Shown one piece after another: positions 24,320 to 49,795 of a stretch of DNA of 64,000 nucleotides. The DNA comes from Patescibacteria group bacterium (GTDB taxonomy: Bacteria > Patescibacteriota > Minisyncoccia > Phycocordibacterales > SBAW01), in contig JACOWS010000002.1 of NCBI GenBank assembly GCA_016176685.1, positions 30,608 through 94,607 of the forward strand, in the 5' to 3' direction. Position 1 is the first letter of the stretch. Each line of letters begins with the position of its first letter. Made by a program: the position numbers and the translations under genes. Below the pieces are notes generated by a model. The model was given only the letters and a program-made list of their open reading frames with translations. It was not told where the DNA came from and ran no database searches.

Positions 24320-24943
24320 TTGCGTATGAACCCGCTTGAGCGCCTAACCAAAAACTTTGAACGGTTCCCCGGCATTGGCCCCCGGCAGGCAAGACGCTTT
24401 GTGCAGTTTTTACTTGTACAGCAGGGCGCCTATCGCACGGCGCTCGCCGACGACATCAAACGTCTCGGGGCAAACTCCTTCCAGTGCAAAAAATGTTTTC
24501 GGTGGTCGGTTAAAAACGGCAGCTCGCACGCCGTGTGTACTATATGTAGAGATGCTCACCGTGAGACCGGGCTTTTATGTGTGGTGGAAAAAGACGCCGA
24601 CCTCGACAACGTCGAGCGCAGCGGCTTTAAGGGTCTCTACTTTGTTTTGGGAGGGACCATACCTCTCGCCGCCGAAGAGCCAGAGGCCCATGTCCGCGCA
24701 CGAGAGTGTATAATGCGCATAGAGGAAGACGGCACTAAGGGTGTGTTAAAGGAGGTTATTTTGGGCCTCTCCGCCACCACCCTAGGCGACCACACCAGGG
24801 GCTTCCTACAAGAAAAGATACTGCCTATAGCGCAAGCGCTCAATTTTAAAATTACATCACTGGGTCGCGGGCTCTCAACCGGCTCGGAGCTGGAATATGC
24901 CGACCCGGACACCATCGCCAGCGCATTATCCTCTAGATACTAG
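24320..24943 (+). CDS. recR: Recombination protein RecR
   Basis: HhH 'FPGIGPRQARRF', C4 zinc finger and Toprim domain. Confidence 0.9.
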   Translation: MRMNPLERLTKNFERFPGIGPRQARRFVQFLLVQQGAYRTALADDIKRLGANSFQCKKCFRWSVKNGSSHAVCTICRDAHRETGLLCVVEKDADLDNVERSGFKGLYFVLGGTIPLAAEEPEAHVRARECIMRIEEDGTKGVLKEVILGLSATTLGDHTRGFLQEKILPIAQALNFKITSLGRGLSTGSELEYADPDTIASALSSRY

Positions 24944-25018
24944 AGAAACAAAAAAGTCCTTTGTACAGGAGTAGGGCTCCCGTTCATCTCTCCGGAACAA
25001 AGGACTTTTTTGTTTCTC
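24943..25018. repeat. Family 2 conserved-loop hairpin, copy A (22-bp perfect stem; loop contains GGAGTAGGGCTCCCGTTCATCTCTCC)
   Basis: gagaaacaaaaaagtcctttgt / acaaaggacttttttgtttctc around a 32-nt loop. It fills the gap between the recR stop (+) and the rplU stop (-). Confidence 0.8.
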
Positions 25019-25359
25019 TACGCAATCTTTGTTATCTTTACCTCAAAAAAGGGCTGGCGGTGGCCGCGTTTTTTAAAATAGTTGGACTTTGCTTTGTACT
25101 TGATAACCACCACCTTCTTGGCGCGGTCTATTTTTTGTATCTCTGCCGAAACCTTAGCCCCCGCAATGTAAGGCGTCCCCAAGGTGGTGTCTTTTCCATT
25201 GTCTACCACTAGCACCTTGTCAAAAGTTACCGCGTCGCCAATCGCGTAAGCTCCCTGCTCCGGGCTTGCAGGAGCAAGCTTCTCTATTTTGAGGGTGTCA
25301 CCCTGGGATACCATATACTGTTTCCCGCCGGTTTCTATGATGGCAAACTCCTTTTGCAT
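25018..25359 (-). CDS. rplU: 50S ribosomal protein L21
   Basis: 'MQKEFAIIETGGKQYMVSQGDTLKIEKL' L21 N-terminus. The longer track ORF is a read-through of the adjacent hairpin. Confidence 0.9.
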   Translation of the reverse strand: MQKEFAIIETGGKQYMVSQGDTLKIEKLAPASPEQGAYAIGDAVTFDKVLVVDNGKDTTLGTPYIAGAKVSAEIQKIDRAKKVVVIKYKAKSNYFKKRGHRQPFFEVKITKIA

Positions 25360-25405
25360 GAGCGCTACTATAGCGCAAAAAAACCAGTAATACAAGGTCA
25401 GACTG

Positions 25406-25489
25406 GATGAGAATCCGCAGCCATTTTGGATGGTAAGACTTGGGTCTTTAGCGGCCCGGAGCGCCATCCAAAATGGCTGCGGATTCTCA
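25406..25489 (+). repeat. Family 1 conserved-loop hairpin element, copy 3 (loop variant with a 3-nt insertion)
   Basis: 27-bp perfect stem atgagaatccgcagccattttggatgg / its reverse complement; loop TAAGACTTGGGTCTTTAGCGGCCCGGAGCGC. It lies just 3' of rmuC and 5' of rplU. Confidence 0.85.
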
Positions 25490-25496
25490 TATTGTA

Positions 25497-26600
25497 TTAC
25501 TCCTTCCCTTCCAACTCCGGTTTTTCAACCCCCTCAAGCTCAAAGCCGATCGCCTCGCCGGTGATTTTTAATACGTCTTTATCAATCTTCCCCAGCTCGC
25601 GGCTCCCGCCGTTGTAGTGGTTTATCGTGGTCGAGAGCGAGGCCCCAAGCCGTTTGTAGATATCTTCATACGCCTTCATATGGCGCGAAAGCGCCTCAAC
25701 ATTTTTAGCAATGTCCTTTGCCGCCTCTTCTATCTTAAAGGCCTTAAATCCGTACAGCACCGACTGCAAATAGGCGGCGAAGGTAGTGGGCGAGACAATT
25801 ATCACCTTTTTTTCGTTGTAGGCGTAGTCTATAAGGTTGCGCGTGTTTACCTTAACCGCCCCCACCTCATTTATCAAAAGGTCGTAGTAAATGGCCTCTG
25901 CCGGAATATACATAAAAGCAAACGGCAGTGTGCCGTCTTTGGGCCGCACGTACTTGGCGCTCTCGTCGATACGCGTCTTGAGGTCGTTTTTAAACTGCTT
26001 TTCTAGCTCCTCGCGCTGGGTCTGATCTATCGCATTCACCAGCCGGTTGTAGTTTTCTAAGCTAAACTTGGCATCAACCGGTATGACCCCCTCTTTGGTC
26101 ATAATTACCGCATCCACCGTCTCCCCGCCCGGAAATTCATACTGCATTTTGTAGGCGGTGGGCGGTAAAATGTTGCCCAAAATGAGCTCGAGCGACGCTT
26201 CGCCCAAGTTGCCGCGCTGTTTTTGGTGCGTGAGCACTTTTTCCAGATTTTGCAGCTGCTCGGCCAGGGTAAACACCTGCTTGTTGGACTCCTTCGTTTC
26301 GGCAACGCCCTTAGTTACCTCGAGCAGCTGCTCGGAGACCTGCTTGGTGATGTTGCTCATCAGCCGCTCGGCCTGCTCGGACTGCGTCTTCATGCTTTCA
26401 AACATTCGGTCGGAGCCCTCGCCAAGCTTGTTCTCCACCACCCGAGAAAGGTCTTGCAGCTGGTTTTGCAGGAGCATAAGCCCTTGGCTGTCGGCCAGAG
26501 CGTCCTGTGCGGGACCTGTGGAGCCGCGCCTCCACAACAGATACATAGTCGCTATGTTGCCAAGCACGAGGAACACCAGTAGCAGTATGAGCGGATCCAT
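25497..26600 (-). CDS. rmuC: DNA recombination protein RmuC
   Basis: N-terminal TM helix, long coiled-coil and RmuC C-terminal domain. Confidence 0.8.
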   Translation of the reverse strand: MDPLILLLVFLVLGNIATMYLLWRRGSTGPAQDALADSQGLMLLQNQLQDLSRVVENKLGEGSDRMFESMKTQSEQAERLMSNITKQVSEQLLEVTKGVAETKESNKQVFTLAEQLQNLEKVLTHQKQRGNLGEASLELILGNILPPTAYKMQYEFPGGETVDAVIMTKEGVIPVDAKFSLENYNRLVNAIDQTQREELEKQFKNDLKTRIDESAKYVRPKDGTLPFAFMYIPAEAIYYDLLINEVGAVKVNTRNLIDYAYNEKKVIIVSPTTFAAYLQSVLYGFKAFKIEEAAKDIAKNVEALSRHMKAYEDIYKRLGASLSTTINHYNGGSRELGKIDKDVLKITGEAIGFELEGVEKPELEGKE

Positions 26601-26646
26601 ACTCCCAGTGTATCACGACGCGTTTTTTTGCTATACTTTTTTGCAT

Positions 26647-27099
26647 ATGACACACCTGGAGTTGAAGGAGGCCATCAAAACCACCATGAAGGCAAAAGAC
26701 ACTGTGCGGCTCGGGGTCTTGCGCGGGCTCTCTGCCGCGGCCGTGAACGACTTGGTGGCCAAAAGCCGTAAGCCGGACGAAATGCTAACCGAAGAGGAGT
26801 TGATGACGGTTATCATGCGTGCGGCCAAACAGCGCAAAGACTCGATAGAGCAGTTTGAGAAGGGCGGCCGGCCCGAGCTTGCACAGGGCGAGCGGGCGGA
26901 GCTTGTAATACTCCAAGCACTCCTCCCCTCCCAGCTCTCGCGCGAGGAGATAGAAAAAGCGGTAAAAGAGAAAGCCACCACGCTTGGAGTAACTGACAAA
27001 AGCGGTGCCAATAAGCTCATGGGTATGCTAATGAAAGACCTCAAGGGCAAGGCCGACGGCACGGTAGTTAAGGAAGTCGTTGATTCCCTCTTTTCCTAA
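26647..27099 (+). CDS. GatB/YqeY domain protein
   Basis: 'MTHLELKEAIKTTMKAKDTVRLGVLRGLSAA...' is the typical YqeY family sequence. Confidence 0.8.
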   Translation: MTHLELKEAIKTTMKAKDTVRLGVLRGLSAAAVNDLVAKSRKPDEMLTEEELMTVIMRAAKQRKDSIEQFEKGGRPELAQGERAELVILQALLPSQLSREEIEKAVKEKATTLGVTDKSGANKLMGMLMKDLKGKADGTVVKEVVDSLFS

Positions 27100-27228
27100 A
27101 GTTGGACTTACGAAGTCCAACTTTGGGGACAAATGGCTTGACAAACAAGCAAAAATCTGCATAATCTGTAACGGAAGTGTTGCGTTCCTACCAATCCTAA
27201 AGTTGGACTTACGAAGTCCTACTTTCCA
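27098..27228 (+). promoter_or_regulatory. Consensus sigma70-like promoter (TTGACA at 27138-27143, CATAAT at 27160-27165) flanked by two copies of the 27-bp palindrome AAAGTTGGACT-TACGA-AGTCCAACTTT
   Basis: Palindrome 1 is at 27098-27124 (perfect). Palindrome 2 is at 27199-27225 (one arm degenerate). The -35 and -10 boxes are 16 nt apart. Confidence 0.6.
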
Positions 27229-27250
27229 ATATAGGCGCGAGGAGGCGCAA

Positions 27251-27442
27251 ATGCTCAAATACACACGATGGGAAAAAACAGCCCCACTTCCGTGGGCCTC
27301 TGGCCTGCCGATGAGGCCGGGCGAAACGTCGCGGCGCACACCGGCCCAATCGCTGGCCGACGCCGAAAAGCTCGCGGCAGAAAAACAACGTGCGCGCCTG
27401 CGCGAGCAAGCTCGCAGGCTCGGGGAGAAGTTCGATGAATAA
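27251..27442 (+). CDS. Small hypothetical protein (63 aa, basic/coiled C-terminus); first gene of the GC-rich cassette
   Basis: GAGGAGG Shine-Dalgarno 6 nt upstream of the ATG; the stop overlaps the next ORF's start (ATGAATAA). Confidence 0.5.
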   Translation: MLKYTRWEKTAPLPWASGLPMRPGETSRRTPAQSLADAEKLAAEKQRARLREQARRLGEKFDE

Positions 27443-27779
27443 TATCCCCTTCTCCCCAAATGACGGGGTCCTGCGCTTCAACCTTCTTTCTGGCGATAAG
27501 CTTCGCCAGGCGGAAGAAGAGTGCGCAGGCGTCGTTCGTGTAATCGCCGCGGGGCGATACACTGCGCGGCTGCGGGTTGGTGAGGAGGTGTGGAAGTTTT
27601 TTCTCACCGACGACCCGAGCGTCGAGTTCGCCGCTAGCGGCGGCGATGCAAACTGCGACGACCTGCTGCGCCGCCTGGCTTTCCATCGCGCCGCCGAGGT
27701 GATGCTGGCTCTGCGCCAGGGACACAAGGAGGCCGTGCTCAGCCGCCAGCAAAAAAAACTGGCCAAGGAACCCGCGTAG
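27435..27779 (+). CDS. Hypothetical protein (114 aa); second gene of the GC-rich cassette
   Basis: Translationally coupled to the upstream ORF and followed by a terminator. Antisense ORFs are Arg/Ser-rich, which indicates this is the coding strand. Confidence 0.5.
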   Translation: MNNIPFSPNDGVLRFNLLSGDKLRQAEEECAGVVRVIAAGRYTARLRVGEEVWKFFLTDDPSVEFAASGGDANCDDLLRRLAFHRAAEVMLALRQGHKEAVLSRQQKKLAKEPA

Positions 27780-27788
27780 CAAGTTTCA

Positions 27789-27822
27789 AGGGCGGACGTC
27801 TTTCAGACGTCCGCCCTTTCCT
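27789..27822 (+). terminator. Hairpin terminator (13-bp perfect stem gggcggacgtct/agacgtccgccc)
   Basis: Immediately after the cassette ORFs; followed by TTTCCTATATAT. Confidence 0.55.
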
Positions 27823-27908
27823 ATATATCTAAATACAGTAAAAAACTCCCAAACGCATTAACTTTAAGCTATAGCGTAGAGTTAATGCGTTTACTAATGA
27901 ACTAATGA

Positions 27909-29078
27909 CTAGCGGAGGTATTTTTTGTTTTTGAGTTTGTCGGGCAGGTAGGACTCCTTTTCGCCCGCGGGTGGATATTTTTCATACCCCTCGCCGTATT
28001 TCAACTCTTTCATCAGTTTGGTTGGTGCATTGCGTATTTTGAGCGGCACCGGGAGGTTGCCAAACGCCGCCACGTCCGCCTGCGCCGCGGTGAGTGCGTC
28101 GTACGCGCGCCTATCTTTTTTAGAGCCCGAAAGGTACGCCACCCCGTGTGCCAAGTTTATGGCACACTCCGGGTAGCCGATTTTATTGCACGCTTCAAAC
28201 ACCGCATTGGCCACCACGAGCGCGGTCGGCACTGCCAACCCCACGTCCTCGCTCGCAAATATAACCATACGCCGCGCGATAAACAGCGGGTCCTCCCCCG
28301 CCTCGACCATCCTCGCCAGGTAGTAGAGCGCAGCATCCGCTTGCCCTGCCCGCATCGACTTAATAAACGCGCTAATGGTGTTGTAGTGCTCCTCGCCCTT
28401 TTTGTCGTAGCGCAAGTTTTTGCTCTGTATAGTCTCCTTGAGCGTCTCTATAGATATCTTGCCGTACAGTTTTTGCGCGTTCTCAAGCACGGTTATGGCT
28501 TGCCGCGCGTCTCCCTGCGCCATCTGCACGAGCCAGTTCCTCGCTTCGTTCGGGATTTTCAATCTCGTGCGTTTGATAATTATCTTCATGTCTTTCTCGG
28601 ACAGTTCGTTTAACACAAACACACGGCAACGAGAAAGGAGGGCTGAAATGATTTCAAAACTGGGGTTCTCGGTCGTGGCGCCAATGAGAGTCAGGTCACC
28701 GCGCTCGACATACGGCAGTAAAAAATCCTGCTGCGCTTTGTTAAAGCGGTGTATCTCGTCTATAAAAAGTATTTTTGGCTTGCCGATTTGCAGTTGCCCG
28801 CGCTTCCCTACTATTTTTTTGATGTCCTCCTTGCCGGAGTCTACCGCCGAAAGTTCGTGGAACTCCGCATCAAGCGCGTTGGCGTAGATGCGCGCGAGCG
28901 TTGTTTTGCCGCTACCCGGCGGCCCCCAAAGGATAAAGGAAAAAAGGTGCTTGTTTTTAATAGCTTCCCACAGCGGACCGCCTCGGCCTAAACTCGTCGA
29001 AGACTCCCCTACCAAATGTTCTTGGCCGGAAAATTCCTTGAGACTCTTGGGGCGTATTTGTGATGCCAACGGCTCCAT
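27909..29078 (-). CDS. rarA: Replication-associated recombination protein A (RarA/MgsA AAA+ ATPase)
   Basis: Walker A 'GPPGSGKTTLARIYANAL'; overall RarA architecture. Confidence 0.9.
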   Translation of the reverse strand: MEPLASQIRPKSLKEFSGQEHLVGESSTSLGRGGPLWEAIKNKHLFSFILWGPPGSGKTTLARIYANALDAEFHELSAVDSGKEDIKKIVGKRGQLQIGKPKILFIDEIHRFNKAQQDFLLPYVERGDLTLIGATTENPSFEIISALLSRCRVFVLNELSEKDMKIIIKRTRLKIPNEARNWLVQMAQGDARQAITVLENAQKLYGKISIETLKETIQSKNLRYDKKGEEHYNTISAFIKSMRAGQADAALYYLARMVEAGEDPLFIARRMVIFASEDVGLAVPTALVVANAVFEACNKIGYPECAINLAHGVAYLSGSKKDRRAYDALTAAQADVAAFGNLPVPLKIRNAPTKLMKELKYGEGYEKYPPAGEKESYLPDKLKNKKYLR

Positions 29079-29132
29079 ACCAAGCCAGTATAACCGCTTG
29101 GCATATGCTATGCGATAGTACTTTAAAATTGG

Positions 29133-29789
29133 CTAATTGCCGGTTTCCTGGTTATCGGTAGAGCTTGCAGTAGTGGTTGGTGTTATGGTTGCTCCATTTG
29201 GCATCACCTCTTCTATAGGGAACTCTGTGGCGGAAGTGCCCTCTGTTGATGTGGGGAAGAAGATGCTTCTTACCGCTTCCGTGCCGCCAACTAATTGAGG
29301 GTAAAACCAATAGGCCAGACCTCCCAGACACAAGAGTATCACCAGCACAAAGATAAACAGCCAGGGAACCCGACTTTTGGTTAGTGGCGGGAATATGGCA
29401 GAGGTGCGCGCCGTGCTTGGAGAGACAGGCCCTGTGTCTATTTCCAACCGCGGCATAGTCGACAGTGGAGTTAAATGCACGGACGGTTGTTGCACGGTGA
29501 CAACCGGCTCTTGTGAGCCGCTCTGTGCCATGCGCGCGGCCTCGCCTATGCCGATTGAGACAGTCGGCCGTATTGTTGCAGGAGCTGGTGCCTTTGGCGC
29601 CATAGATGGTTTAGGAGCCATAGGGACCGGCGGTGCTGGAGGTTTTACTACGCCGTCGATAGCATCAAAGGCCTCTTTTGCATCTTGCTCGCTCCACCCG
29701 CCGGTGGCAAGCGCCTTTTTAATAGCATCACGCGAGGCGCCCGCCTTGAGTTGCCCGCGTATGTAAGAAAGTAGCTCTTCGTTAATCAT
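29133..29789 (-). CDS. Hypothetical membrane-anchored protein with Pro/Ala-rich linker
   Basis: 218 aa; N-terminal helical domain, PAPPVPMAPKPSMAPKAPAP linker, one TM helix. Confidence 0.5.
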   Translation of the reverse strand: MINEELLSYIRGQLKAGASRDAIKKALATGGWSEQDAKEAFDAIDGVVKPPAPPVPMAPKPSMAPKAPAPATIRPTVSIGIGEAARMAQSGSQEPVVTVQQPSVHLTPLSTMPRLEIDTGPVSPSTARTSAIFPPLTKSRVPWLFIFVLVILLCLGGLAYWFYPQLVGGTEAVRSIFFPTSTEGTSATEFPIEEVMPNGATITPTTTASSTDNQETGN

Positions 29790-29821
29790 ACTTATTGAAT
29801 TATACCACTATTGTACCACTC

Positions 29822-29894
29822 GCTGACAAGGCAAAAAAAGAGAGTAAGACTTGGCCTAGCGGCCCGGAGCGCTCTCTTTTTTTGCCTTGTCAGC
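29822..29894 (+). repeat. Family 1 conserved-loop hairpin element, copy 4; supplies the last codons and TAG stop of the FAD oxidase gene
   Basis: 22-bp perfect stem gctgacaaggcaaaaaaagaga / its reverse complement around TAAGACTTGGCCTAGCGGCCCGGAGCGC. The minus-strand reading of the arm plus core gives ...ADKAKKESAPGR*. Confidence 0.85.
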
Positions 29895-31631: not shown

Positions 31632-31636
31632 GAGTA

Positions 31637-32191: not shown

Positions 32192-32258
32192 ATACATTAT
32201 AAAAATCACCTGGTAAATTGCGCACAATTTATACGTCTCATAAAAGTATACCACCTTG

Positions 32259-32921
32259 CTACCCCTTTTTGTCGAGAACAAACCGCCACGGCTTGTTTAC
32301 ATACTCACCCGCGGAGTCAATGCCGATGCGCGGGGTGCATCGCACTTGACCACGCCCTACCTCTACTCCTCTGTCCTCAACCCACAGGCCGGTCTTTTTG
32401 CCGAGCGGTTTGTTGTTTAGCTTTTTGTCTACCTGCAAAAACTTGGTGAGTTTTGCCGGACCGTCAAGGCGCACGCCAACAGGGCGAAAAAAGAGGGCGC
32501 TCCGGGCCGCTAGGCCAAGTCCTACCCTCTTTTTTCGCCCTGTTGGCGGCAGCTCACCGTGTGACAAGATTCGACTTTGCCATTGCGGTTCAAGGCCGCG
32601 TATCAGAACAGCCGCAGGATATCTTTCTTTCCCGCACACCAGGTTAAGCATCCAGTGCATGCCGTAGGTAAAGTACACGTACACCACTCCGGGGCGGCCA
32701 AACATCGGCGTGTTGCGAGCGGTTTGCCCGCGGTGGGCATGGCTGGCTTTGTCTCTTGGGCCGTCGTACGCTTCGGTCTCAACAATCATAAGTGCTACTT
32801 CACTGCCCCGTACCCTGCGCACTAAAAATTTTCCCACAAGTTCCCGCGCCACGGTAAGTGTTGGCCGGTCAAAAAACGCCGCTTGTAGAACTTTGCGCAT
32901 AGGTTGCATGATACGCAACAT
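32259..32921 (-). CDS. mpg: DNA-3-methyladenine glycosylase (Mpg/AAG family) carrying an in-frame hairpin-element insertion
   Basis: 'FLVRRVRGSEVALMIVETEAYDGPRDKASHAHRGQTARNTPMFGRPGVVYVYFTYGMHWMLNLV...IRGLEP...DGPAKL'. The 220-aa length equals a typical roughly 196-aa Mpg plus a 24-aa insert. Confidence 0.85.
   Translation of the reverse strand: MLRIMQPMRKVLQAAFFDRPTLTVARELVGKFLVRRVRGSEVALMIVETEAYDGPRDKASHAHRGQTARNTPMFGRPGVVYVYFTYGMHWMLNLVCGKERYPAAVLIRGLEPQWQSRILSHGELPPTGRKKRVGLGLAARSALFFRPVGVRLDGPAKLTKFLQVDKKLNNKPLGKKTGLWVEDRGVEVGRGQVRCTPRIGIDSAGEYVNKPWRFVLDKKG
32475..32545 (-). repeat. Family 1 conserved-loop hairpin element, copy 5, embedded in-frame in mpg (translated as PPTGRKKRVGLGLAARSALFFRPVG)
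   Basis: 22-bp perfect arms ccaacagggcgaaaaaagaggg / reverse complement around GTAGGACTTGGCCTAGCGGCCCGGAGCGC on the gene strand. The reading frame is preserved. Confidence 0.85.
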
Positions 32922-32968
32922 CGGCCTACCATGCGAGCAGGAGAACCTATAACCAATGGAGGTGGGCT

Positions 32969-33241: not shown

Positions 33242-33313
33242 TGTTATGAATCGAAAACAAACAGCGCGGACGATGAGCCACAAAATCTCGTCCGCGCTTC
33301 CATTTTTTAAAAC

Positions 33314-33777: not shown

Positions 33778-33859
33778 AATAGTTCCCTCCTAAATTATTT
33801 AGTTGTGGGTGCCGTCCCAAGTTACTATACCAGACTATACGAAAAAAGGAAGGGTTTGC

Positions 33860-39126: not shown

Positions 39127-39132
39127 GTTTAG

Positions 39133-39272: not shown

Positions 39273-40933
39273 CTACAAAAGTATCTCGACTAGTCGGCTT
39301 AATACAAAGTCGCGTTCCAGTGCGGAAAGGAACCACCCGGCTTGCGGACCGTGCGTTTTGCCGAGGAAAGCCAGGTAGATTGCTTTAAACAGCTCCGCCG
39401 GGGCTATGCCCTGCCCTTCCTTTATTTCATGCAGTTTTTTGTGCAAGTCATCACCGCTTGGCATCTGCGGCGACACTTCTATATATCGAAGTAGCTCGCC
39501 GAGAGCTTTTTTCTGCGCGTCGCTTAAACTGTTAGCTGCGTCCGGGAGCGTTTTCTGCAGTTCATAGACAAACCTCTCCGGCGCATATTGTGCGAGCCAT
39601 TTTTTTGCATACGAGGCGCGCTCCTTGAGCTCTGTTTTATCCTCTGCGGTGAGCGCACCGCCTTTTATTTTTTCCACCTCCACTTCCACCTTAAGGTGCG
39701 GCATCTGCACGATGAAGGCCACTTGCGAAAACCGCGGGAGAAAGACCGGTGGCGGAATCCGCCGGAGAAATGGTCTGGCCTCGCCTTGCCCGCCAGGAGA
39801 TTGCGGGCGAGCGAGGAGACCCGAGGACCTTTCTCCGGCGGATTCCGCCGTAGGTTCAAACAAATATGAAAACAACCGCGCGTAGTCGTCTTTGACGCCG
39901 GCCCAATAGCTCAAGGCGAGTTTGTCGTACTGGTCGTAGAGCACCGGTATGGTATCGCCCTCGGGGTCGAAATTTATTTGCTGGTTGATGTCGCGGCCCA
40001 GCAGTGCCAAACGGAAAATCTTTGTGGGTACCAGGTCTGAAATTTCTTTAGCACTGCTCCCCCTCCCTTTGCTTGACGACATCTTTTTGCCGCCCGCGAG
40101 CAAAAACTCGTAGGGGATGTCAAACGGCGGCTCGTAGTTGAAGACTTCTTTGGAAATATGGTTGGCCACGTCGCGCGAGCCGCCGCGCGTCGAGTGGTCT
40201 TTGCCCGCGCCCTCTACCAAAACTCCGCCCACCTTCCACTTTGCGGCCCACTCAACCTTCCACGGCAACTTGGCTTTACCGCCAAACGGGGAAACTCTGC
40301 CCGCAAATCCGCATCCTTTTGTATATTCAACCTTATCTTCTCTGCAGAGGACGGCCACTGTTTTGCCATCGAAGTCGCTTGCTTCTGTGGTTGCTATCTT
40401 TCCGCACCCCGGGCACACTACGGAGAGCGGGAGCCACTCCCCTTCTTTTTGCGAGCCGGAAACTTCTTTATATATAGTGCGGATTTTTTCGGCATTCTTG
40501 AGCGCCCCGGTAATAGCCCCGTCCATGCGGCCAGAAAGATATAGGTCGCTTGCCCACGAGTATTCTGGGGTAAACCCCGCATGCGCTATGGCTTTCTTAA
40601 AGTCGTCGGCAAAGTACTCGGCAAAGTTTAGGGCGCTGGGCTCTGGTGATGGCACGTTTTTAAGCGGCATTCCCAAATAGTGCTCAAATTGTTCGCGCGG
40701 GAGGTAGGCGGGGATGTCATCCATCGGGTCAAAGTCGTTCATCTCAAAGCGAAATACGTTCGGGACTTTTGCTCCGCGAGTATCTTGGCCACCGCGCCGT
40801 GTATTGCCACCCCGCGCATAGAACCTATGTGTACGCGGCCGGAGACCGTCTTTTCGTCGCGTACGACAATGGTACCCTTCCGGCCCTTGTAGCGCTCGAC
40901 TATCTCCCCCGCTATCCGCTCTGCCCAAAACAT
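39273..40933 (-). CDS. lysK: Class I lysyl-tRNA synthetase (LysK type) with an apparent single-base frameshift near 40765-40768
   Basis: Frame A (40933 to about 40766) encodes 'MFWAERIAGEIV...SGRVHIGSMRGVAIHGAVAKILAEQK' (HIGH region). Frame B continues 'VPNVFRFEMNDFDPMDD...CPGCGK...KMSSSKG' and matches archaeal-type LysRS throughout. The junction lies in an A4 run on the coding strand (TTTT on plus) that would need to be A5. Confidence 0.8.
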
Positions 40934-40942
40934 GGGCTTATT

Positions 40943-41410: not shown

Positions 41411-41451
41411 CATAGCTATGCCGAAGTAGTGTAACGGAGTGAGCAGTAAAG

Positions 41452-43155: not shown

Positions 43156-43161
43156 AACGCC

Positions 43162-43455
43162 CTAGTATAGCGTTTCCGACTGCATTCTGCCTAAAAGGTA
43201 GCGTTTGGCGAGCGCGCGGCCGAGCATCGCGGCAAGCGCGATAATCGTAAAAGGAAACCATACAAAGTGCGGCGCGCCCATGGGCGCGCCGTAGGCAATA
43301 TCAAACAAAAGACCCATCGCTATGGCAAACAAGTACCGGCCCGAGAGTCCCGCAAGCAGTATGCCGAGTGCCGAGAGCGGCCACAAAGGGAGCAAAAAGC
43401 CGAGTGCGGCGAGGAGGAAGCTGGCGGCGAGGAGGAGGCGGGTTTTGTTCATCAT
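43162..43455 (-). CDS. mreD: Rod shape-determining protein MreD-like
   Basis: 97-aa multi-TM protein immediately downstream of mreC. Confidence 0.55.
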   Translation of the reverse strand: MMNKTRLLLAASFLLAALGFLLPLWPLSALGILLAGLSGRYLFAIAMGLLFDIAYGAPMGAPHFVWFPFTIIALAAMLGRALAKRYLLGRMQSETLY

Positions 43456-44264
43456 AATGCTGTTTGCGGACGCACCTCTACATACTGTAATCCAAACAAA
43501 TTAACCGGCAACGACATAGAAAGCGTTAAAAACGAACCGCCTTCGGTTGGAGTTACGCTCACCACCGCGGCGGCAAATGATGGGGCAATGCCCGGGAATA
43601 GTACCGCATCGCCCACGCGTACTACGGTGCCGGACGGCACGTCGCCCGCAAGCGACCCGCCGCCCATGCCGGCAACAGTAAGCGGCACGGTGCCGTCTTG
43701 TGTTTTGAGCAACGCGTCGTACGACTCACCCGGTGCGGAGAGCAGGACCACGCGCGCGGCGTGCGGGTATACCTGCGACACTTTCCCTACTATGACCGAA
43801 CCGCCGGCAAACACCGGCGCCCCCGCCACGACCCCCTCTATACTCCCCGCATCTATAAAGAGCGTGTCGTATGGCACCCCGGGGGGCGCGAGCAGTACGG
43901 CGGCAAGTATGCTTGCCGTGCTCGCCTCCCTGCCAAGGCGGCGTTTTAGGTCGCTGTTTTCAAGGTATAGCAGGTTGCGGTCGAGGAGCAGTATGCTTGA
44001 TGAAGCGAGGGCGGCGCGCAGGGCATCATTCTCCGCAACCAGGGCGGTTTTTGATGCAAATGGCGTTGCTATAGAACTAAACACGCCCGCGGAGAATGTC
44101 CGTGTTTCGAGTACCGGAGTAGCAACGCTCCACAGCACGATTGAGAGTTGCTCTCGCCAGAGCGCCGCCATGGCGAACAGCGCTATACAAAGAACCAAAA
44201 ACACTACGGTGCGAGGAGACCCAAAGCGCCGGCCGTGACGCCGGCTAGGAGAAATCGTCGTCAT
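43452..44264 (-). CDS. mreC: Rod shape-determining protein MreC
   Basis: N-terminal TM helix, coiled-coil and C-terminal beta domain 'GGSLAGDVPSGTVVRVGDAVLF'. Confidence 0.8.
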   Translation of the reverse strand: MTTISPSRRHGRRFGSPRTVVFLVLCIALFAMAALWREQLSIVLWSVATPVLETRTFSAGVFSSIATPFASKTALVAENDALRAALASSSILLLDRNLLYLENSDLKRRLGREASTASILAAVLLAPPGVPYDTLFIDAGSIEGVVAGAPVFAGGSVIVGKVSQVYPHAARVVLLSAPGESYDALLKTQDGTVPLTVAGMGGGSLAGDVPSGTVVRVGDAVLFPGIAPSFAAAVVSVTPTEGGSFLTLSMSLPVNLFGLQYVEVRPQTAL

Positions 44265-45312
44265 ACTCTAAAAATACATCCCGGTAGGCGTCAAGGTTTT
44301 CCAAAATAACACCGGTGCCGCGCGCCACGGCGGTCAAGGGGTCGTCGGCAACCACCACCGGGACCTTGAGCCATTGCGAGAGCAGTTGGTCGAGCCCTTT
44401 AAATAGCGCTCCCCCGCCGACAAGCACTATACCCTGCCGCATTATGTCGGAGAGGATTTCGGGCGGCGTAGTTTCAAGCACCTCGCGGATAGTTTCAACC
44501 AGCGTGTCCATAGACTGCGAGACGGCCTCGCGGATGTCGGAGTCGGTTATTATAACCTCGCGAGGGAGCCCGGTTATAAGGTCGCGGCCGCGCACCACCG
44601 CCTCGAGGTGCCCGCCACCTTCTGTGACAGAGCCGATAGCAACTTTAACGTTCTCGGCGGTCTTTTCGCCTATCAAAATCTTAAATTCAGAACGTAGGTG
44701 AGAGATGATGTCTTGGTCGAGCTTGTCGCCCGCTATTCTAAGATTTTTTGAGCGCACGACTCCGCCGAGAGAGAGAACGGCAATGTCCGTGTTGCCGCCG
44801 CCAATGTCGACTATCATGCTCCCCATAGCCTCGCGTATGGGGAGGCGCGTGCCGATTGCCGCGGCCATCGGCTCTTCGACAATGTAAACTTCTCGGGCTC
44901 CGGCGTTGCGCGTCGCGTCTTTAACCGCGCGTATCTCTACATTGGTGATGCCGCTTGGCACGCCTATCACCACGCGCGGGCCCAATAGTTTGCGCGCGGT
45001 ACCTGCCGGCGAGCTCTGCGCGCGGTTTATAAGGTACGCAAGCATCTCTTCGGTCGCCTCAAAGTCCGACACCACACCCTCTACCAATGGGCGCACGGCG
45101 GCCAAGTGCCCGGGGGTCCTTCCGAGCATTGCTTTGGCAACACTCCCCACCGCCACCACCTGGCCGGTTTTTTGGTTGACCGCCACTACCGAGGGCTCGG
45201 TCACCACGATGCCCTTGCCGCGCAAATATACCAGCGTGTTTGCCGTGCCAAGGTCTATCCCGAGGTCGTTGGAAAAAATCGGAAACACTCGGTTTGTAAT
45301 CAGTTTAAACAT
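44245..45312 (-). CDS. mreB: Rod shape-determining protein MreB (paralog 1)
   Basis: 'LGIDLGTANTLVY...' actin-fold motifs; start at MFKLI. Confidence 0.9.
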   Translation of the reverse strand: MFKLITNRVFPIFSNDLGIDLGTANTLVYLRGKGIVVTEPSVVAVNQKTGQVVAVGSVAKAMLGRTPGHLAAVRPLVEGVVSDFEATEEMLAYLINRAQSSPAGTARKLLGPRVVIGVPSGITNVEIRAVKDATRNAGAREVYIVEEPMAAAIGTRLPIREAMGSMIVDIGGGNTDIAVLSLGGVVRSKNLRIAGDKLDQDIISHLRSEFKILIGEKTAENVKVAIGSVTEGGGHLEAVVRGRDLITGLPREVIITDSDIREAVSQSMDTLVETIREVLETTPPEILSDIMRQGIVLVGGGALFKGLDQLLSQWLKVPVVVADDPLTAVARGTGVILENLDAYRDVFLEYDDDFS

Positions 45313-46561
45313 GGGTAAGGCGCGTCTGCAGTTCTGAAATGGAGAGATGCTGAGTTTTGCCGCCCTTGCGCTCGGTACACTCAAACGCTCCTTCGGACAG
45401 CGTCTTTTCCGACACCACCACTCTAAGAGGAACGCCCAAAAGGTCGCTGTCGGAAAACTTTTCCCCCGCGCGCAAGTCGCGGTCGTCCCACAACACCTCT
45501 ATGCCGGCCTCGGTCAGCGTGCGATACAGCTCGCCGGCTTCTGCGGACACTTCCTTGTTGCCGCCGGAGAGCTCAACCAGGTGTACGGCAAACGGAGCGA
45601 TGGACTCGGGCCATACCATGCCCTTTTCGTCGCAGAGTAGTTCCACCACGGTGCCCATGGCGCGCGCCGGGCCGATACCGTAGGAGCCCATGACAACCGG
45701 CACAGACTCGCCCGCCTCGTTTTTATAGGTAAGCCCCAAGGGAGCCGAGTACTTGGTGCCAAGCGGAAAAATGTTGCCGACCTCTATTGACTTCGCCTCG
45801 CGCAGATAGGTCTTGTCGAGGCCTAGCGAGTCGAGCGTCTCGTCGTTGTATACCTCTTTGTTGACGGCAATATGCCGTCGCTCGTCTATATATATGGTGT
45901 CCTCGCCGGCATCCGACACGGTTTGGAACTCATCGCTAAACTTGCTGAACGAGCCGCCTGACGCAAAGGTGCGGAAGGTTTTGTCTCCGATCCCAAGCCT
46001 GTTAAAAATCCGTACATATGCCTCCGCACACTGCTCGTAAAACTCGCGGAACTCCTCTTGCGTTTTGCTGAATGAGTACAGGTCCTTCATGATAAACTCG
46101 CGGGTGCGCATGATGCCGCTCTTGGCCCGTAGCTCGTTGCGGAACTTGGTTTGGAACTGGTACACGTAGCGGGGCAGGTCTTTGTGGGAGGAGATGTGCT
46201 GGGTTAGAAGCCGCGTCAATGGCTCTTCGTGCGTGTTGGCAAATCCCACCTCTCCGCCCGCCTTAAGCTCCGACTTAAACCATATATCCACCACCTCGTC
46301 ATTCCACCGGCCGGAGACCTTCCACACCTCGGGCTCTTGGAGTGCGGTCATCGAAATTTCCTGCCCGCCGATGGCGTTCATCTCCCCGCGGATTACCGCC
46401 ATTATGTTGTTAAGTACCCGGAGCCCCAGCGGCAAAAAAGTGTAAGCCCCGGCCATCTCTTTGTGGATGTATCCGGCGCGTATTAGCAGCTGTGCGTTTT
46501 TAGAAACCTCGTCTTTTGGCGCCTCGCGGCGCGTCTTGGTAAACAATTGCGATTGGCGCAT
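45305..46561 (-). CDS. proS: Prolyl-tRNA synthetase
   Basis: Class II motifs; 'MRQSQLFTKTRREAPKDEVSKNAQLLIRAGYI' N-terminus; anticodon-binding C-terminal domain. Confidence 0.85.
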   Translation of the reverse strand: MRQSQLFTKTRREAPKDEVSKNAQLLIRAGYIHKEMAGAYTFLPLGLRVLNNIMAVIRGEMNAIGGQEISMTALQEPEVWKVSGRWNDEVVDIWFKSELKAGGEVGFANTHEEPLTRLLTQHISSHKDLPRYVYQFQTKFRNELRAKSGIMRTREFIMKDLYSFSKTQEEFREFYEQCAEAYVRIFNRLGIGDKTFRTFASGGSFSKFSDEFQTVSDAGEDTIYIDERRHIAVNKEVYNDETLDSLGLDKTYLREAKSIEVGNIFPLGTKYSAPLGLTYKNEAGESVPVVMGSYGIGPARAMGTVVELLCDEKGMVWPESIAPFAVHLVELSGGNKEVSAEAGELYRTLTEAGIEVLWDDRDLRAGEKFSDSDLLGVPLRVVVSEKTLSEGAFECTERKGGKTQHLSISELQTRLTHV

Positions 46562-46608
46562 ATGAGAGCCATTGTACGGCGAAACGGCAGGGGAAGCAAA
46601 AAGAGAAA

Positions 46609-47694
46609 CTAGCTTATGAGGCGGGTAATATCGTGGAAAGACACCAGCACCATAAGAGCGATGAGTAGCGCGAAGCCGCCCACGGTAAACCACAAGGTTA
46701 ACCGCTCCGGCAGGGGGCGGCGCGTCACACTTTCTATAAAGATAAAAAATAGCCGGCCGCCGTCGAGCCCCGGTATCGGCAAAATATTTAAAAGCGCCAG
46801 GTTTATTGAAATGAGCGCGGTTAGGGTTACCGCCGCGGCAAACCCGCTTGCGACCGCGCGGCTGCCTATGCCGGCTATCCCGATGGGCCCGGCGATGTCG
46901 GCAAAGTTTCCCGCACCGATGAAGAGCCCCGAAAAAAACTCTGCAAGACCTTCCGCCGTGGCGAGAGTCATGCGGTAGGTCAAGATACCGCCCTCAAGTA
47001 GCGCCAGGTGGGGCGGCAAGGTAAGCACGCCGACATCGTCGAGGTTGATGCCCACCGCCTTGCGCCCGGGCACCAGTCCCGCTTCCGCTTTTGCCAAAAA
47101 GTGCTCCTCGGCGCCGTCGCGCAGTACCGTAAATACGATGCTTTCTTCCTGATGCTCTGTTATAAACGTTTGTACCTCGGCCGAGGAAGCGCCTTGGTGG
47201 AGTGCCGCGCTACCGGTGTCGATATTTTCAACTACATCGCCCGGCAAAAGCCCGGCACGCGCCGCAGGCGAGTCCGGGAAAACGCCCACGACGGTAGCGC
47301 GTACATCGGTGACAGCGCCAAACCCGACATGCTCCGCCGAGGTCGGAAGCCCCGCCAGGTAGCCCGCGGAAAGCACCAACCAGGCAAATAGTATATTCAT
47401 CACGATGCCGGCCGCGATGACTGCCGCCTGCTTGGGCCGGGACTTGCTTGCAAATGCGCGCGGATTGCTTCCCGCCTCATCTTTTCGTTCGCCAAAAATG
47501 CGCACAAAACCGCCAAAAAACAGCAAGTTTATAGAGTAGCGGGTTTCGCCCAATTGGAGCGAGAGTAGACGCGGCGGGAAGCCGATGCCGAACTCCTCCA
47601 CCTTTATACCAAAAAGTTTTGCCGCAAAAAGGTGCCCGAACTCGTGCACGACAATAAGCCCGGTCAATATGAGTATAAATATGAGAAGCGACAT
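46609..47694 (-). CDS. rseP: RIP metalloprotease RseP (site-2 protease, M50) with PDZ domain
   Basis: 'HEFGHLFAAKLFGI' HExxH and 'NILPIPGLDGG' LDG motif. Confidence 0.85.
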   Translation of the reverse strand: MSLLIFILILTGLIVVHEFGHLFAAKLFGIKVEEFGIGFPPRLLSLQLGETRYSINLLFFGGFVRIFGERKDEAGSNPRAFASKSRPKQAAVIAAGIVMNILFAWLVLSAGYLAGLPTSAEHVGFGAVTDVRATVVGVFPDSPAARAGLLPGDVVENIDTGSAALHQGASSAEVQTFITEHQEESIVFTVLRDGAEEHFLAKAEAGLVPGRKAVGINLDDVGVLTLPPHLALLEGGILTYRMTLATAEGLAEFFSGLFIGAGNFADIAGPIGIAGIGSRAVASGFAAAVTLTALISINLALLNILPIPGLDGGRLFFIFIESVTRRPLPERLTLWFTVGGFALLIALMVLVSFHDITRLIS

Positions 47695-47698
47695 AGTG

Positions 47699-48250
47699 CT
47701 AGGCGGCTATCTCCTTTTCCTTGCGTGCCAGCGCCTCGTCAAAGAGCTTGTTGGCCGCATCAACGCGTTTTTGCATTTCGTCTTTGGCGCGGAACTTGTC
47801 ATCTTCCGCCATTTTTTTGTCTTTTTCCTGCTTTTGGATGTCGTTCCATGCATCGTCTCGCGCCGCCCGCAGCTCTTTGCGCACATCTTCAACCTTTTCT
47901 TTTGCGAGCTTCAGCAGCATAGTGCGGCGCTCGGAGGTAAGCTCGGGGAAAAAGACGCGCACACCTTTTTCGTCGCTCCCGACCGAGAGTCCCAAATTTG
48001 CCACGGTGATGGCCTTTTCTATTTCCTTGCCTAAGCTGTGGTCCCACGGGGTAATGCGCAATGTCCGCGCATCCTCAACGGAAATAGTTGCCACCTGCGG
48101 CAAGGTCATCCGCGAACCAAAAGACTCCACGGTAACGCCGTCCAGTATTGCCGGTGTGGCGCGCCCAGTGCGCACGCCCGCAAGCTCTTTGCCGAGCCGC
48201 TCGACTATATCTGCAACACGCTTTCCGAATGGTTTAAAGTCGTATGCCAT
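47699..48250 (-). CDS. frr: Ribosome recycling factor
   Basis: Full-length RRF similarity ('...RTGRATPAILDGVTVE...'). Confidence 0.9.
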   Translation of the reverse strand: MAYDFKPFGKRVADIVERLGKELAGVRTGRATPAILDGVTVESFGSRMTLPQVATISVEDARTLRITPWDHSLGKEIEKAITVANLGLSVGSDEKGVRVFFPELTSERRTMLLKLAKEKVEDVRKELRAARDDAWNDIQKQEKDKKMAEDDKFRAKDEMQKRVDAANKLFDEALARKEKEIAA

Positions 48251-48263
48251 CGCTTTTAGTATA

Positions 48264-48926
48264 TCAAACTCTAAATTTTTTTGCCGCCTTGGAATATGTC
48301 TTTACCAGTGGGTCTTGGCTTGTGTCGTAGCGCCTCGCGGGTGCCAGGTATCGGCCGTAGTGTATGACCCGGTTTGAAAAAGAGCCCCACTCTTTTTTGG
48401 GCAAGAGCTGCATTAAGTCTTTTTCAATCTTGACAGGGTTGCGGTGGTTTGAGAGGTCAAACCGGTGCACAAAACGTATCATGTGTGTGTCCACGGTAAC
48501 CCCCGCGACAGTGCCATATACCTCTTGCAAAACCACGTTGGCGGTTTTGCGCGCCACACCCGGCAACAGCAAAAGCTCTTCCATAGTGCGCGGCACCGAG
48601 CCCTTAAACTTGGCCTTAACCATTTTGGCCGCGGCCAAAATGGTTTTTGTTTTATTGCGATAAAAGCCGCTAGACTTTATGTCTTGCTCAAATGCGCGCG
48701 GCCGTGCCAGTACATACGCTTCGAGTGTTTTATATTTTTTAAAAAGCTTCTTTGTAATTTTGTTGACCATTTTGTCAGTGCACTGCGCAGAAAGTTGCAC
48801 CGCCACCACAAGCTCCCATGGGGTATGGTAGGTAAGTTCTATTTCCGCATTGGGAAAAAGCTTTTTAAGCGCCCGGTTGAGTTTTTGTATCCGCACCTTT
48901 CTTTCTTTAAATATTTTAGGATTCAT
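48264..48926 (-). CDS. nth: Endonuclease III (Nth, HhH-GPD) lacking the C-terminal [4Fe-4S] cysteine ligands
   Basis: HhH 'LPGVARKTANVV' (catalytic Lys) and 'VDTHMIRF' (Asp). There are no Cys residues in the C-terminal 60 aa. Start chosen at MNPKIF; the upstream extension is read-through of the hairpin element. Confidence 0.8.
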   Translation of the reverse strand: MNPKIFKERKVRIQKLNRALKKLFPNAEIELTYHTPWELVVAVQLSAQCTDKMVNKITKKLFKKYKTLEAYVLARPRAFEQDIKSSGFYRNKTKTILAAAKMVKAKFKGSVPRTMEELLLLPGVARKTANVVLQEVYGTVAGVTVDTHMIRFVHRFDLSNHRNPVKIEKDLMQLLPKKEWGSFSNRVIHYGRYLAPARRYDTSQDPLVKTYSKAAKKFRV

Positions 48927-48934
48927 ACGTATTT

Positions 48935-49012
48935 CAGCCAGCGGAGCAAAAAAAGAGGGCACTCCGGGCCGCTAGGCCAAGTCTAACCCTCTTTTTTTGC
49001 TCCGCTGGCTTG
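48935..49012 (-). repeat. Family 1 conserved-loop hairpin element, copy 6 (core variant TTAGACTTGGCCTAGCGGCCCGGAGTGC); supplies the holB-like C-terminus and TAG stop
   Basis: 25-bp arms cagccagcggagcaaaaaaagaggg / reverse complement. On the gene strand the arm plus core reads ...ASGAKKEG-TAG. Confidence 0.85.
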
Positions 49013-49699
49013 CAGTTGTGGCAAGGTAGCGGCCAAGTGCTCCAGGAGCATTTTGTAGGAGGGGGCGCGGTCGTTTGCGTAGCCGCGGATTTTTGCAATG
49101 TCTTCAAGCCCTTCTCGCACCCTACTATTCCCTTTTGCCAGGTGCGGATACATTTCCACCTCGAGCGCGTCTAAAAATGCGCGCACCGACTCGCGTAGGC
49201 CTTCGTCGTCCCCGACCGAACGACCGGAGTCGTCCGGTCGGGCGGGTTTGAGCATTTTGGCTATTTCCGCACTGCGCGCCGTTTGCGAGCTAGCAAGAAA
49301 TTTCCTGGCAAGCGCATGCTCAACAATGATGGATTTACGAAGTCCATCATTGGGGTATGGAGTCATTCTCGAGCGCAGGGTCGGTATGACCGTGCCATGT
49401 GGAGTTAACAAAACAAAGATGGTCCCCTGCTGCGGCTCTTCAAACAATTTTAAAAGCGCCTGCTGGGCTTCTATGGTCATGGTGGAAACGCCCACTACAA
49501 AAAGCGCGCGGCCCGTGGCCGACCTAAGCCCTGCCGCTTGCCGCAAGGCGCGCGCCTCGCCTATACCAAAAGTCTCTTCACTAACCACCCTAACGTCCGG
49601 GTCACCCTGTTTTGTAAAAGTAAAACGTGTACGCGCATCCTCTACGAGCCCTACAAGGTTTGAAAGAGGCCCTTCAAAAAGGTAGGCGTGGTGCTGCAT
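48983..49699 (-). CDS. holB: DNA polymerase III delta-prime subunit-like (HolB-like clamp-loader subunit)
   Basis: 'ALLKLFEEPQQGTIFVLLTPHGTVIPTLRSR' clamp-loader box; start chosen at MQHHAYLFEGP. Confidence 0.65.
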   Translation of the reverse strand: MQHHAYLFEGPLSNLVGLVEDARTRFTFTKQGDPDVRVVSEETFGIGEARALRQAAGLRSATGRALFVVGVSTMTIEAQQALLKLFEEPQQGTIFVLLTPHGTVIPTLRSRMTPYPNDGLRKSIIVEHALARKFLASSQTARSAEIAKMLKPARPDDSGRSVGDDEGLRESVRAFLDALEVEMYPHLAKGNSRVREGLEDIAKIRGYANDRAPSYKMLLEHLAATLPQLQASGAKKEG

Positions 49700-49710
49700 G
49701 TACGCAGTAT

Positions 49711-49795
49711 AGCGAAGCAAAAACCCTTTGCGAAGGAGTAGGGTTCCCGTTCATCTCTCCTTTGCAAAGGGTTTTTGAGCAGTTTACCGCTTCGC
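49711..49795. repeat. Family 2 conserved-loop hairpin, copy B (loop GGAGTAGGGTTCCCGTTCATCTCTCC; inner 13-bp stem plus outer 7-bp stem)
   Basis: aaaaaccctttgc / gcaaagggttttt plus gcgaagc / gcttcgc. It lies between the mreB-2 stop (-) and the holB-like start (-). Confidence 0.8.

Follow-up and report, generated by a model that had tools for sequence, protein, structure and literature searches.

In this study, we show that two long hairpins in a stretch of 64,000 nucleotides (nt) of Patescibacteria DNA (assembly GCA_016176685.1, contig JACOWS010000002.1, positions 30,608 to 94,607 of the forward strand; hereafter the window, numbered from its first letter) are members of a dispersed family, here called family 2. 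We propose, with a probability of about 65%, that family 2 is a small, non-autonomous, terminator-like mobile palindromic DNA element of Patescibacteria (Paceibacteria/Parcubacteria lineage), analogous to the Rickettsia palindromic elements. What is copied to new places is the hairpin as a whole, and the main rival explanations each fail at least one of the features tested. In the literature searched, no description of such elements in bacteria of the Candidate Phyla Radiation (CPR) was found.

Anatomy of the hairpin and covariation of its stems

The two copies in the window and the conserved blocks at their apices are located as follows.

24941-25020, plus strand: family 2 copy 1, complete hairpin element (99.8 bits under the covariance model)
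about 49709-49798, plus strand: family 2 copy 2 (81.8 bits under the covariance model)
24968-24993, plus strand: conserved 26-nt apical block of copy 1, GGAGTAGGGCTCCCGTTCATCTCTCC, loop variant A
49735-49760, plus strand: conserved 26-nt apical block of copy 2, GGAGTAGGGTTCCCGTTCATCTCTCC, with one C to T change relative to variant A

The first-pass annotation of this DNA had reported both hairpins at these places, sharing a conserved loop and having stems that differ from each other and nevertheless pair within each copy, and this description holds. Copy 1 has a perfect stem of 24 bp (24941-24964 with 24997-25020), above which lie an ACA/GGA 3x3 internal loop, a GGAG/CTCC helix (24968-24971 with 24990-24993) and an apical loop of 18 nt, TAGGGCTCCCGTTCATCT (24972-24989). 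In copy 2, inner arms of 21 nt (49718-49738 with 49757-49777), which are 95% complementary with one G.U pair, enclose the apical loop TAGGGTTCCCGTTCATCT (49739-49756). Outside these arms there is a 3' bulge of 11 nt (49778-49788), beyond which about 8-10 bp form an outer helix (49709-49718 with 49789-49798). The 26-nt block, GGAGTAGGG(C/T)TCCCGTTCATCTCTCC, occurs exactly twice in the window, and it had no match in 100 dinucleotide shuffles even with three mismatches tolerated. The folding z-scores of both hairpins range from -6.6 to -7.8. When the covariance model was run unfiltered over the window, these two were the only family 2 copies, the hairpins of a second family (family 1, described below) scoring 15-28 bits.

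Across the family, the element is about 75-110 nt long. Its outermost stem of 8-12 bp is paired, with a sequence that differs from locus to locus. There follow conserved A-tract and T-tract blocks, AAAAGTCC... and ...GGA(G)CTTTT, about 20 nt from the apex (5' block AAAAGTCCTT, 3' block AAGGAGCTTTT), an extra bulged G being frequent in the latter; together they resemble the base of a bidirectional intrinsic terminator. Between these blocks and the GGAG/CTCC helix, the inner stem is variable (6-8 bp, often with a GNA/GGA internal loop), and the apex itself consists of that helix and an 18-nt family-specific cassette. The loop comes in two main variants, A (GAGTAGGGCTCCCG...) and B (GAGTTGGGGTCGTG...), as well as in recombinant forms, variant A being the commonest in public data (60 of the 139 hairpin matches listed).

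The covariation of the stems is very strong. RNAalifold found compensatory changes in 19 of 27 pairs, and in the covariance-model alignment of 111 matches the paired cells amounted to 94.8%, as compared with 66.3% in shuffles. In the same alignment there were 700 double-change cells against 193 in shuffles, slid controls gave 46-61%, and the covariation score was 0.764 against 0.20 in shuffles. The covariance and census approach that had been recommended for these hairpins thus confirmed that the hairpins form a real family, in which the apex is conserved and the stems covary, and a simple segmental duplication of the two loci is ruled out by more than 140 copies in other genomes. Two features of the loop were considered and set aside: an inner GGGC/GUUC mini-helix predicted by RNAfold is broken by variant B with no compensation, and a check by eye for K-turn, loop E and T-loop motifs gave no convincing match.

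Distribution among Patescibacteria

Genomes, one per species, were scanned with an exact 20-nt loop pattern and metagenomes with a relaxed one; the loop positions fixed by these patterns are invariant by construction, and the flanking GGA/TCC, the stems and the context were left free. The genome scan returned 20 loci, of which 19 are true copies. All 19 belong to Patescibacteria (Adlerbacteria, Kaiserbacteria, Paceibacterota, Parcubacteria and metagenome-assembled genomes labelled Saccharibacteria), and in all 19 the same apex sits inside a long, differing, self-complementary stem. The twentieth locus, from Actinomycetota, has no hairpin and was rejected as a chance match. The metagenome scan gave at least 120 loci and the two scans combined at least 120 distinct copies; since the metagenome copies are partly orthologous, these counts overstate the number of independent events. 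Counts out of 120 below are among the matches listed from both scans combined, and related loci in other genomes and metagenomes are designated by L-numbers (L001-L145). Scans of viral contigs with both loop patterns returned no match, and a phage origin was dropped on that account.

Mobility and changes in place

Presence/absence polymorphism was found between related genomes in the form of filled and empty sites. At L114, a single contig holds two near-identical copies of 78 nt, alike in arms and loop, with unrelated flanks. In the gene for TGT, comparison of L017 with L055 and L090, whose flanks are 98% identical, revealed a complete 69-nt hairpin of a sister family (5077-5147; loop CCTCCCTGCAGGTCAGCGAGGGGATGGTCGC) inserted in frame six bases from a resident family 2 hairpin, in one of several 98%-identical alleles. 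Neither arm of this insertion is present in the empty allele, and its length is a multiple of three. Homologues of LigA fall into two length classes, in which the closest relatives of a filled allele are without the element and others are composite. The seemingly empty LigA allele L141 is regarded as a deletion product because it retains a remnant of an arm. Another LigA locus, L144 (P0002), has kept a family 2-like 5' arm but has in place of the apex another palindromic core, formed by TAGGGAAGTC(C/G)GACTTCCCTA in two inverted copies.

A net insertion of 51 nt in LigA gave rise to the idea that the arms are an inverted duplication of the target. This was rejected, as the arms carry family consensus blocks and those of L114 are identical at different loci; it is also ruled out by the new 69-nt insertion in TGT (family 4), whose arms are absent from the empty allele, and by the L141 deletion product.

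The neighbourhood of recR was sampled by protein search, independently of the element. In this sample, family 2 is found at the site between recR and rplU only in the close clade of the window, and relatives with 72-83% RecR identity have either a plain short-loop, terminator-type hairpin or nothing there. Orthologues of the window copy stand in L101, with the orientation unchanged, and in L036, L131 and L145, where the whole inner part is inverted together with the asymmetric internal loop. Moreover, the outer arms of this copy have changed together, and in L131 and L145 both of the embedded stop codons have gone from TAG to TAA. The mixed orientation at orthologous sites would be explained by inversion through recombination between the arms, and we infer that the element flips in this manner.

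Copies inside protein-coding genes

A copy was taken as intragenic when an open frame spans the element with at least 40 codons on each side. By this definition, 61 of the 120 copies are intragenic, lying in long open reading frames (ORFs), and the annotated host genes make up at least 12 families. These annotated hosts are TGT, a class I tRNA synthetase of 1190 residues, an HhH-GPD glycosylase (Nth-like), RecG, LigA, PNPase, Dus, UvrC, Mpg, an S-adenosylmethionine methyltransferase (rRNA/tRNA), MnmA and PolA. In the window, the only intragenic copy is one of family 1 (in Mpg), no family 2 copy being inside a gene there. Alignment to solved structures places the insert between conserved blocks in TGT, LigA and Mpg.

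In none of the 61 intragenic copies is the host frame interrupted. The element is read in five frames, never in one that contains a stop codon, and both orientations of the element are found at one host-gene site. The encoded peptides include GVGLPFIS, SRAPVHLS, RDEREPY/RDEHDPN and GEMNGSPT, with ELGSCSSL in variant B only, and the predicted insert peptides include ...KAPAKGRDEHDPNSLL... in LigA, where GRDEHDPN would also be read, and ...RRSRAPVHLSGEK... in TGT. The encoded peptide is thus not conserved, and the use of five frames and two orientations indicates that what is conserved is the nucleotide sequence. Such open frames speak in favour of translated inserts and against removal at the RNA level. 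We infer from the sequences that the intragenic copies would be translated as 17-30 extra residues in tolerant surface loops.

The same observations bear on the view that these hairpins are intervening sequences that leave the host protein unchanged, through either excision from the mRNA or ribosomal bypass. A long perfect hairpin within a coding sequence is indeed the form expected for excision of the RNase III type or for bypass. However, removal would require neither that every one of the 61 frames be kept nor that the 69-nt insertion be divisible by three, and the occurrence of both orientations at one site is a further point against it. We regard this explanation as extremely improbable.

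The intragenic copies are about 3:1 antisense. It is possible that antisense frames give hydrophilic peptides that would be better tolerated in surface loops. Every annotated intragenic host is a DNA- or RNA-handling enzyme, and hairpins of the window also adjoin recR, dnaB, rmuC, holB, an nth-like gene and an RNase T-like gene; this bias in host genes could stem from insertion tolerance, low expression or a mechanistic link. We also considered whether split genes lie behind the copies scored as intergenic, and rejected this, as the flanking ORFs are different genes with the sole exception of PNPase in L099. There, the gene with the variant B hairpin (292-1761) has an in-frame TAA where L008 (633-2945) has TCA. 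This codon is about 40 nt from the hairpin and unrelated to the element, and could reflect a pseudogene or a sequencing error.

Strand asymmetry, orientation and placement

It seems that the two strands of the element are not equivalent. G.T wobbles, counted from the arm-to-arm alignment, number 141 in the stems of the motif strand versus 47 in those of the other strand, and the bias is seen in intergenic (53:23), ORF-antisense (75:19) and ORF-sense (13:5) copies. Because it holds in all contexts, the asymmetry belongs to the element and not to the host transcript. G.U counts taken from minimum-free-energy structures were discarded as uninformative, owing to constant pairs in the loop. Moreover, of the two strands it is the motif strand that folds better in 110 of the 120 copies under RNA parameters and in 88 of the 120 under DNA parameters. 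The asymmetry fits, and does not prove, a single-stranded, strand-specific intermediate. With respect to transcription, 14 intergenic copies are sense and 14 antisense; the intergenic contexts are co-directional in 28 cases, convergent in 12 and divergent in 2, and the copies favour gene 3' ends.

These results can be set against the view that the hairpin is a host-functional RNA, that is, a terminator or an mRNA 3' stabiliser with its conserved loop bound by a dedicated RNA-binding protein. In agreement with that view, the intergenic copies abut stop codons with convergent and co-directional gene ends favoured over divergent ones, the A-tract and T-tract around the stem are like those of a bidirectional intrinsic terminator, relatives of the window have a plain terminator-type hairpin at the recR/rplU site, and the motif strand is the better folded one as RNA. 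However, about half of the copies lie within genes and in frame, some of these genes being presumably essential (LigA, PolA, class I tRNA synthetase), orientation is 14:14 for the intergenic copies and mixed within each host gene, and the asymmetry tracks the strand of the element even where that strand is antisense to the mRNA (75:19). An intrinsic terminator has a G+C-rich stem, a loop of 3-8 nt and a 3' U-tract, and stands at operon ends only; a terminator consensus scan does not call the present hairpins because their loops are 18-32 nt long. Nor is there a match to an Rfam family: a search of the whole window against Rfam 15, together with a permissive local search, gave no family at gathering score, the only matches being generic hairpins and miRNA-like families far under their gathering scores. 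A terminator or a protein-binding RNA loop, as raised in the first-pass annotation, is therefore not supported as a general function, given the in-frame copies, the even orientation, the element-bound asymmetry and the lack of an Rfam match. We consider a host-functional RNA quite unlikely; the hairpins, with their A/T-tracts, may still have weak terminator activity.

The strand asymmetry would also fit a hairpin that is the recognition site of a sequence- and structure-specific enzyme acting on single-stranded DNA (ssDNA), according to the Ssn/NTS model, with the site spreading mainly by recombination or transformation and modulating DNA uptake or recombination. In keeping with this, the motif strand folds better with DNA parameters as well, the apex is conserved as nucleotides whatever the reading frame, the host genes are enriched for genome maintenance, and hairpin repeats with cognate GIY-YIG ssDNA nucleases exist (PMC11893778). 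On the other hand, NTS and the Ssn-related motif (SRM) conserve a palindromic stem (ATTCCC N8 GGGAAT), whereas the stems of family 2 vary. The window ORFs tested include no single-domain GIY-YIG protein, the density is low (two family 2 and six family 1 copies per 64 kb), and de novo insertion of complete hairpins was observed. As an explanation of the whole family we find this unlikely; the idea of an ssDNA enzyme is still compatible with the trans-acting factor of the mobile-element reading that we favour.

One may also think of a DNA uptake signal of the DUS/USS type (DNA uptake sequence/uptake signal sequence) embedded in hairpins, on the premise that CPR bacteria depend on DNA uptake. Here, a sequence of 20-26 nt is conserved in both orientations, in genes as well as at terminator positions, it has the dialect-like variants A and B, and it is biased to genome-maintenance genes. 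Uptake sequences in Neisseria and Pasteurellaceae are reportedly biased towards such genes too. However, DUS and USS occur about once per kb with one motif per species, as opposed to the present case, where 64 kb hold two copies and several unrelated loop families coexist in the same genomes. DUS terminators form their arms from the signal, whereas family 2 has a single copy of the conserved sequence in the loop, and it is whole hairpins with non-signal arms that get copied. An uptake signal is accordingly a very improbable explanation.

Gene context of the two window copies

The genes that flank the two copies, called from ORFs and Pfam only, are the following.

24320-24943, plus strand: recR (Pfam; 100% identical to P0121 in the protein search)
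25018-25467, minus strand: rplU (ribosomal protein L21), longest ORF, with the true start probably near 25360 (Pfam)
48983-49720, minus strand: holB-like gene (DNA polymerase III delta-prime), with the likely start ATG at 49700 (ORF/Pfam)
49784-50797, minus strand: mreB, whose last codons and stop overlap the outer part of copy 2 (ORF/Pfam)

The genes recR and rplU are convergent, and copy 1 fills the spacer between them such that the outermost bases of its palindrome are the recR stop codon TAG (24941-24943) and the rplU stop codon (25018-25020, minus strand). Copy 2 lies between the mreB stop and the holB start, just upstream of holB. Both of these genes are on the minus strand, so that the motif of copy 2 is antisense to the mreB-holB operon, and the mreB stop (49784-49786, minus strand) sits within the 3' bulge of the hairpin. 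The 3' end of holB is in turn overlapped by a family 1 hairpin. The earlier placement of the family 2 copies between gene ends, at recR/rplU and at mreB/holB, was therefore correct according to Pfam and the positions of the stop codons. On the mobile-element reading, any local effects of the hairpin at the recR/rplU 3' ends or of the intercistronic mreB-holB hairpin would be a by-product and not the reason for conservation.

Other features of the window were noted in passing. The longest inverted repeat of the window (39751-39849; arms of 44 nt, 80% complementary, 11 nt apart) is located within a long ORF (39273-40928, minus strand). At 57965-58256 (plus strand), a tRNA gene is split by a group I intron (57986-58205; Rfam, 56.7 bits); ARAGORN calls the tRNA only once about 200 nt have been taken out, and which anticodon it has varies with the precise position of the splice sites. 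A repeat of the 3' end of this split tRNA (CCTACCCGCGGAGCCCAG) lies at about 58481-58498, with a perfect hairpin of 20 bp behind it (58494-58537), and the two together look like the scar of an insertion at a tRNA 3' end.

Family 1 and other loop families

In addition to the two family 2 copies, the window holds six copies of family 1.

1964-2034, plus strand: family 1, between the M29 peptidase gene and scpA
17222-17298, plus strand: family 1, between tRNA-Pro and the RNase T-like exonuclease gene
25407-25490, plus strand: family 1, in the rmuC/rplU spacer, absent in L036 and L101
29822-29894, plus strand: family 1, with the orthologous L131 site carrying family 2
32474-32548, minus strand: family 1, in frame in Mpg (Mpg gene 32259-32921, minus strand)
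48936-49010, minus strand: family 1, covering both the holB stop and the beginning of the HhH-GPD glycosylase gene

L036 and L101, both close relatives, do not have the copy at 25407-25490, which makes a filled versus empty site. In the rmuC/rplU spacer of L131 (7051-7296), there are about 245 nt with a small ORF, apparently for a short hydrophobic peptide, followed by a short hairpin. At the intergenic site 29822-29894, L131 has a family 2 hairpin with unrelated arms in place of family 1. In Mpg (methylpurine-DNA glycosylase), the family 1 insert adds about 25 residues in frame (...GELPPTGRKKRVGLGLAARSALFFRPVG...), and its position is that of family 2 in L011 (antisense) and L043 (sense); the syntenic L131 is without an Mpg gene at the position of window 32259-32899. 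The tRNA-Pro (window 17100-17360) has the opposite orientation in the syntenic L036, and L004 and L036 have a different hairpin family next to tRNA-Pro instead of the family 1 copy of the window.

Since the same orthologous sites are occupied by families 1 and 2 in different genomes, the two are elements of one kind. The first-pass annotation had seen a kinship between them in a shared GTAGG block. The kinship stands on the basis of site sharing, whereas the block itself is weak evidence, as family 1 reads GTAGG, GTAAG or GTTAG and the major family 2 variant B reads GTTGG. Family 1 also occurs in other genomes, with a variable loop middle (GGTWRGACTTGG...GGAGCGC), and at least three further loop families of the same architecture are present in these genomes. 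Further long-stem hairpins with conserved loops were seen in L016 (1563-1635); in L088 (1123-1207); in L002 (5111-5172) and L047 (2367-2428); and in L048 (5363-5439) and L115 (2033-2109).

Proposed mechanism and points that weigh against it

As the above comparisons show, the hairpin settles in very short spacers at gene 3' ends as well as in frame inside genes, its orientation flips in situ, and its two arms change in concert. Mobilisation would depend on a trans-acting enzyme, one that recognises the single-stranded hairpin on one of its strands by the apex and the A/T blocks; the asymmetry between the strands and the fact that the motif strand is the better folded one point in this direction.

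Several points do not sit easily with a mobile element. Firstly, the apex is strongly conserved in old, vertically inherited copies, such as those giving the LigA peptides, and this is a poor fit to a purely neutral parasite; retention of the apex may reflect homogenisation among copies or a function at the level of the host. Secondly, the invariance of the apex is in part ascertainment, as both collection scans needed an exact pattern, and the wobble counts are not independent, some U.G pairs having been inherited from a variant B master copy. Thirdly, translation of the inserts is deduced from open frames only. Fourthly, the whole element is one inverted repeat, and at two filled/empty junctions neither a target-site duplication nor the terminal inverted repeat of a classical MITE (miniature inverted-repeat transposable element) could be defined. 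Likewise, a Pfam search of about 48 ORFs, which covered the window and not the whole genome, found no gene for a transposase, HUH, RAYT or single-domain GIY-YIG protein. Finally, the reuse of sites by different families could reflect targeted homing or selection for a small number of permissive sites, between which the present data cannot separate.

Comparison with known systems

The closest analogy is with the Rickettsia palindromic elements (RPE; Ogata et al. 2000, 2002), as far as they are covered in the summary given by a review (PMC10969869). According to that summary, RPE likewise comprise several families of small palindromic repeats dispersed in a reduced genome with no known autonomous partner, and have intergenic copies as well as in-frame copies that add a peptide segment to unrelated proteins (PMC10969869). 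As described there, RPE are about 100-150 bp long with a conserved peptide per family (PMC10969869), whereas the present elements are about 75-110 nt long and are read in five frames and both orientations. Furthermore, in family 2 the apex is conserved and the stems covary, and the host lineage (CPR) is unrelated; the likeness is one of features. We know of no report of in-situ inversion, or of the sharing of one site by different families, for RPE.

The REP (repetitive extragenic palindromic) sequences and bacterial interspersed mosaic elements (BIMEs), with the REP-associated tyrosine transposase RAYT (TnpA-REP), are also short hairpin repeats at gene 3' ends with a GTAG-like motif by the hairpin, and strand-specific recognition of a single strand is plausible in both cases. 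In contrast, REP stems are conserved and REPs are extragenic by definition, whereas here the stems vary and half of the copies are intragenic. The REP motif GTAG lies 5' of the hairpin and here it is in the loop, and no RAYT (Y1/HUH) gene was found among the approximately 48 ORFs of the window. SPRITE and other terminator-like MITEs share with family 2 the form of a mobile rho-independent terminator (A-tract, stem, T-tract) at gene ends (PMC10969869). Family 2 differs from SPRITE in its large conserved apical cassette and its frequent in-frame coding insertions, and no terminal inverted repeat or target-site duplication is discernible in it.

The Ssn-related motif has a conserved ATTCCC-N8-GGGAAT-like palindromic stem and flanks the ssnA gene (GIY-YIG, cd10448) (PMC11893778). 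Like family 2, the Ssn-related NTS/dRS3 repeats are many-copy hairpins near genes, and their recognition as ssDNA by a dedicated enzyme is a possible model for the trans-acting factor here (PMC11893778). The architecture is the opposite one, NTS having a conserved stem and a short variable loop, and the cognate gene adjoins the repeats in NTS (PMC11893778), whereas none does so here among the window ORFs tested.

Significance for CPR bacteria

It is possible, and we put it forward as tentative, that family 2 belongs to a previously undescribed class of CPR mobile elements. These palindromes would have the shape of a terminator and apical cassettes that can be exchanged (families 1 and 2 and at least three more). 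An enzyme reading the apex would move them in the form of strand-specific single-stranded hairpins, and they would home to the same sites and replace each other there, flip, and thereby repeatedly remodel surface loops of enzymes of DNA repair, replication and tRNA modification in these minimal genomes. The conserved apex, the covarying stems, the flipping and the sharing of sites all point to an enzyme that reads the hairpin loop.

In-frame protein-coding palindromes have so far been treated as a peculiarity of Rickettsia, where they are mainly documented. If our interpretation is true, family 2, which is independent of RPE, widespread and apparently active, would be the second well-documented case known to us, and selfish palindromes would be reshaping core enzymes (LigA, PolA, RecG, TGT, tRNA synthetase) in two unrelated groups of bacteria with reduced genomes. 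Many unexplained insertions of 17-30 residues in CPR proteins, as well as long hairpins at gene ends, could then be such elements, and the filled, empty and flipped alleles may be usable as population-genetic markers for uncultured CPR bacteria.

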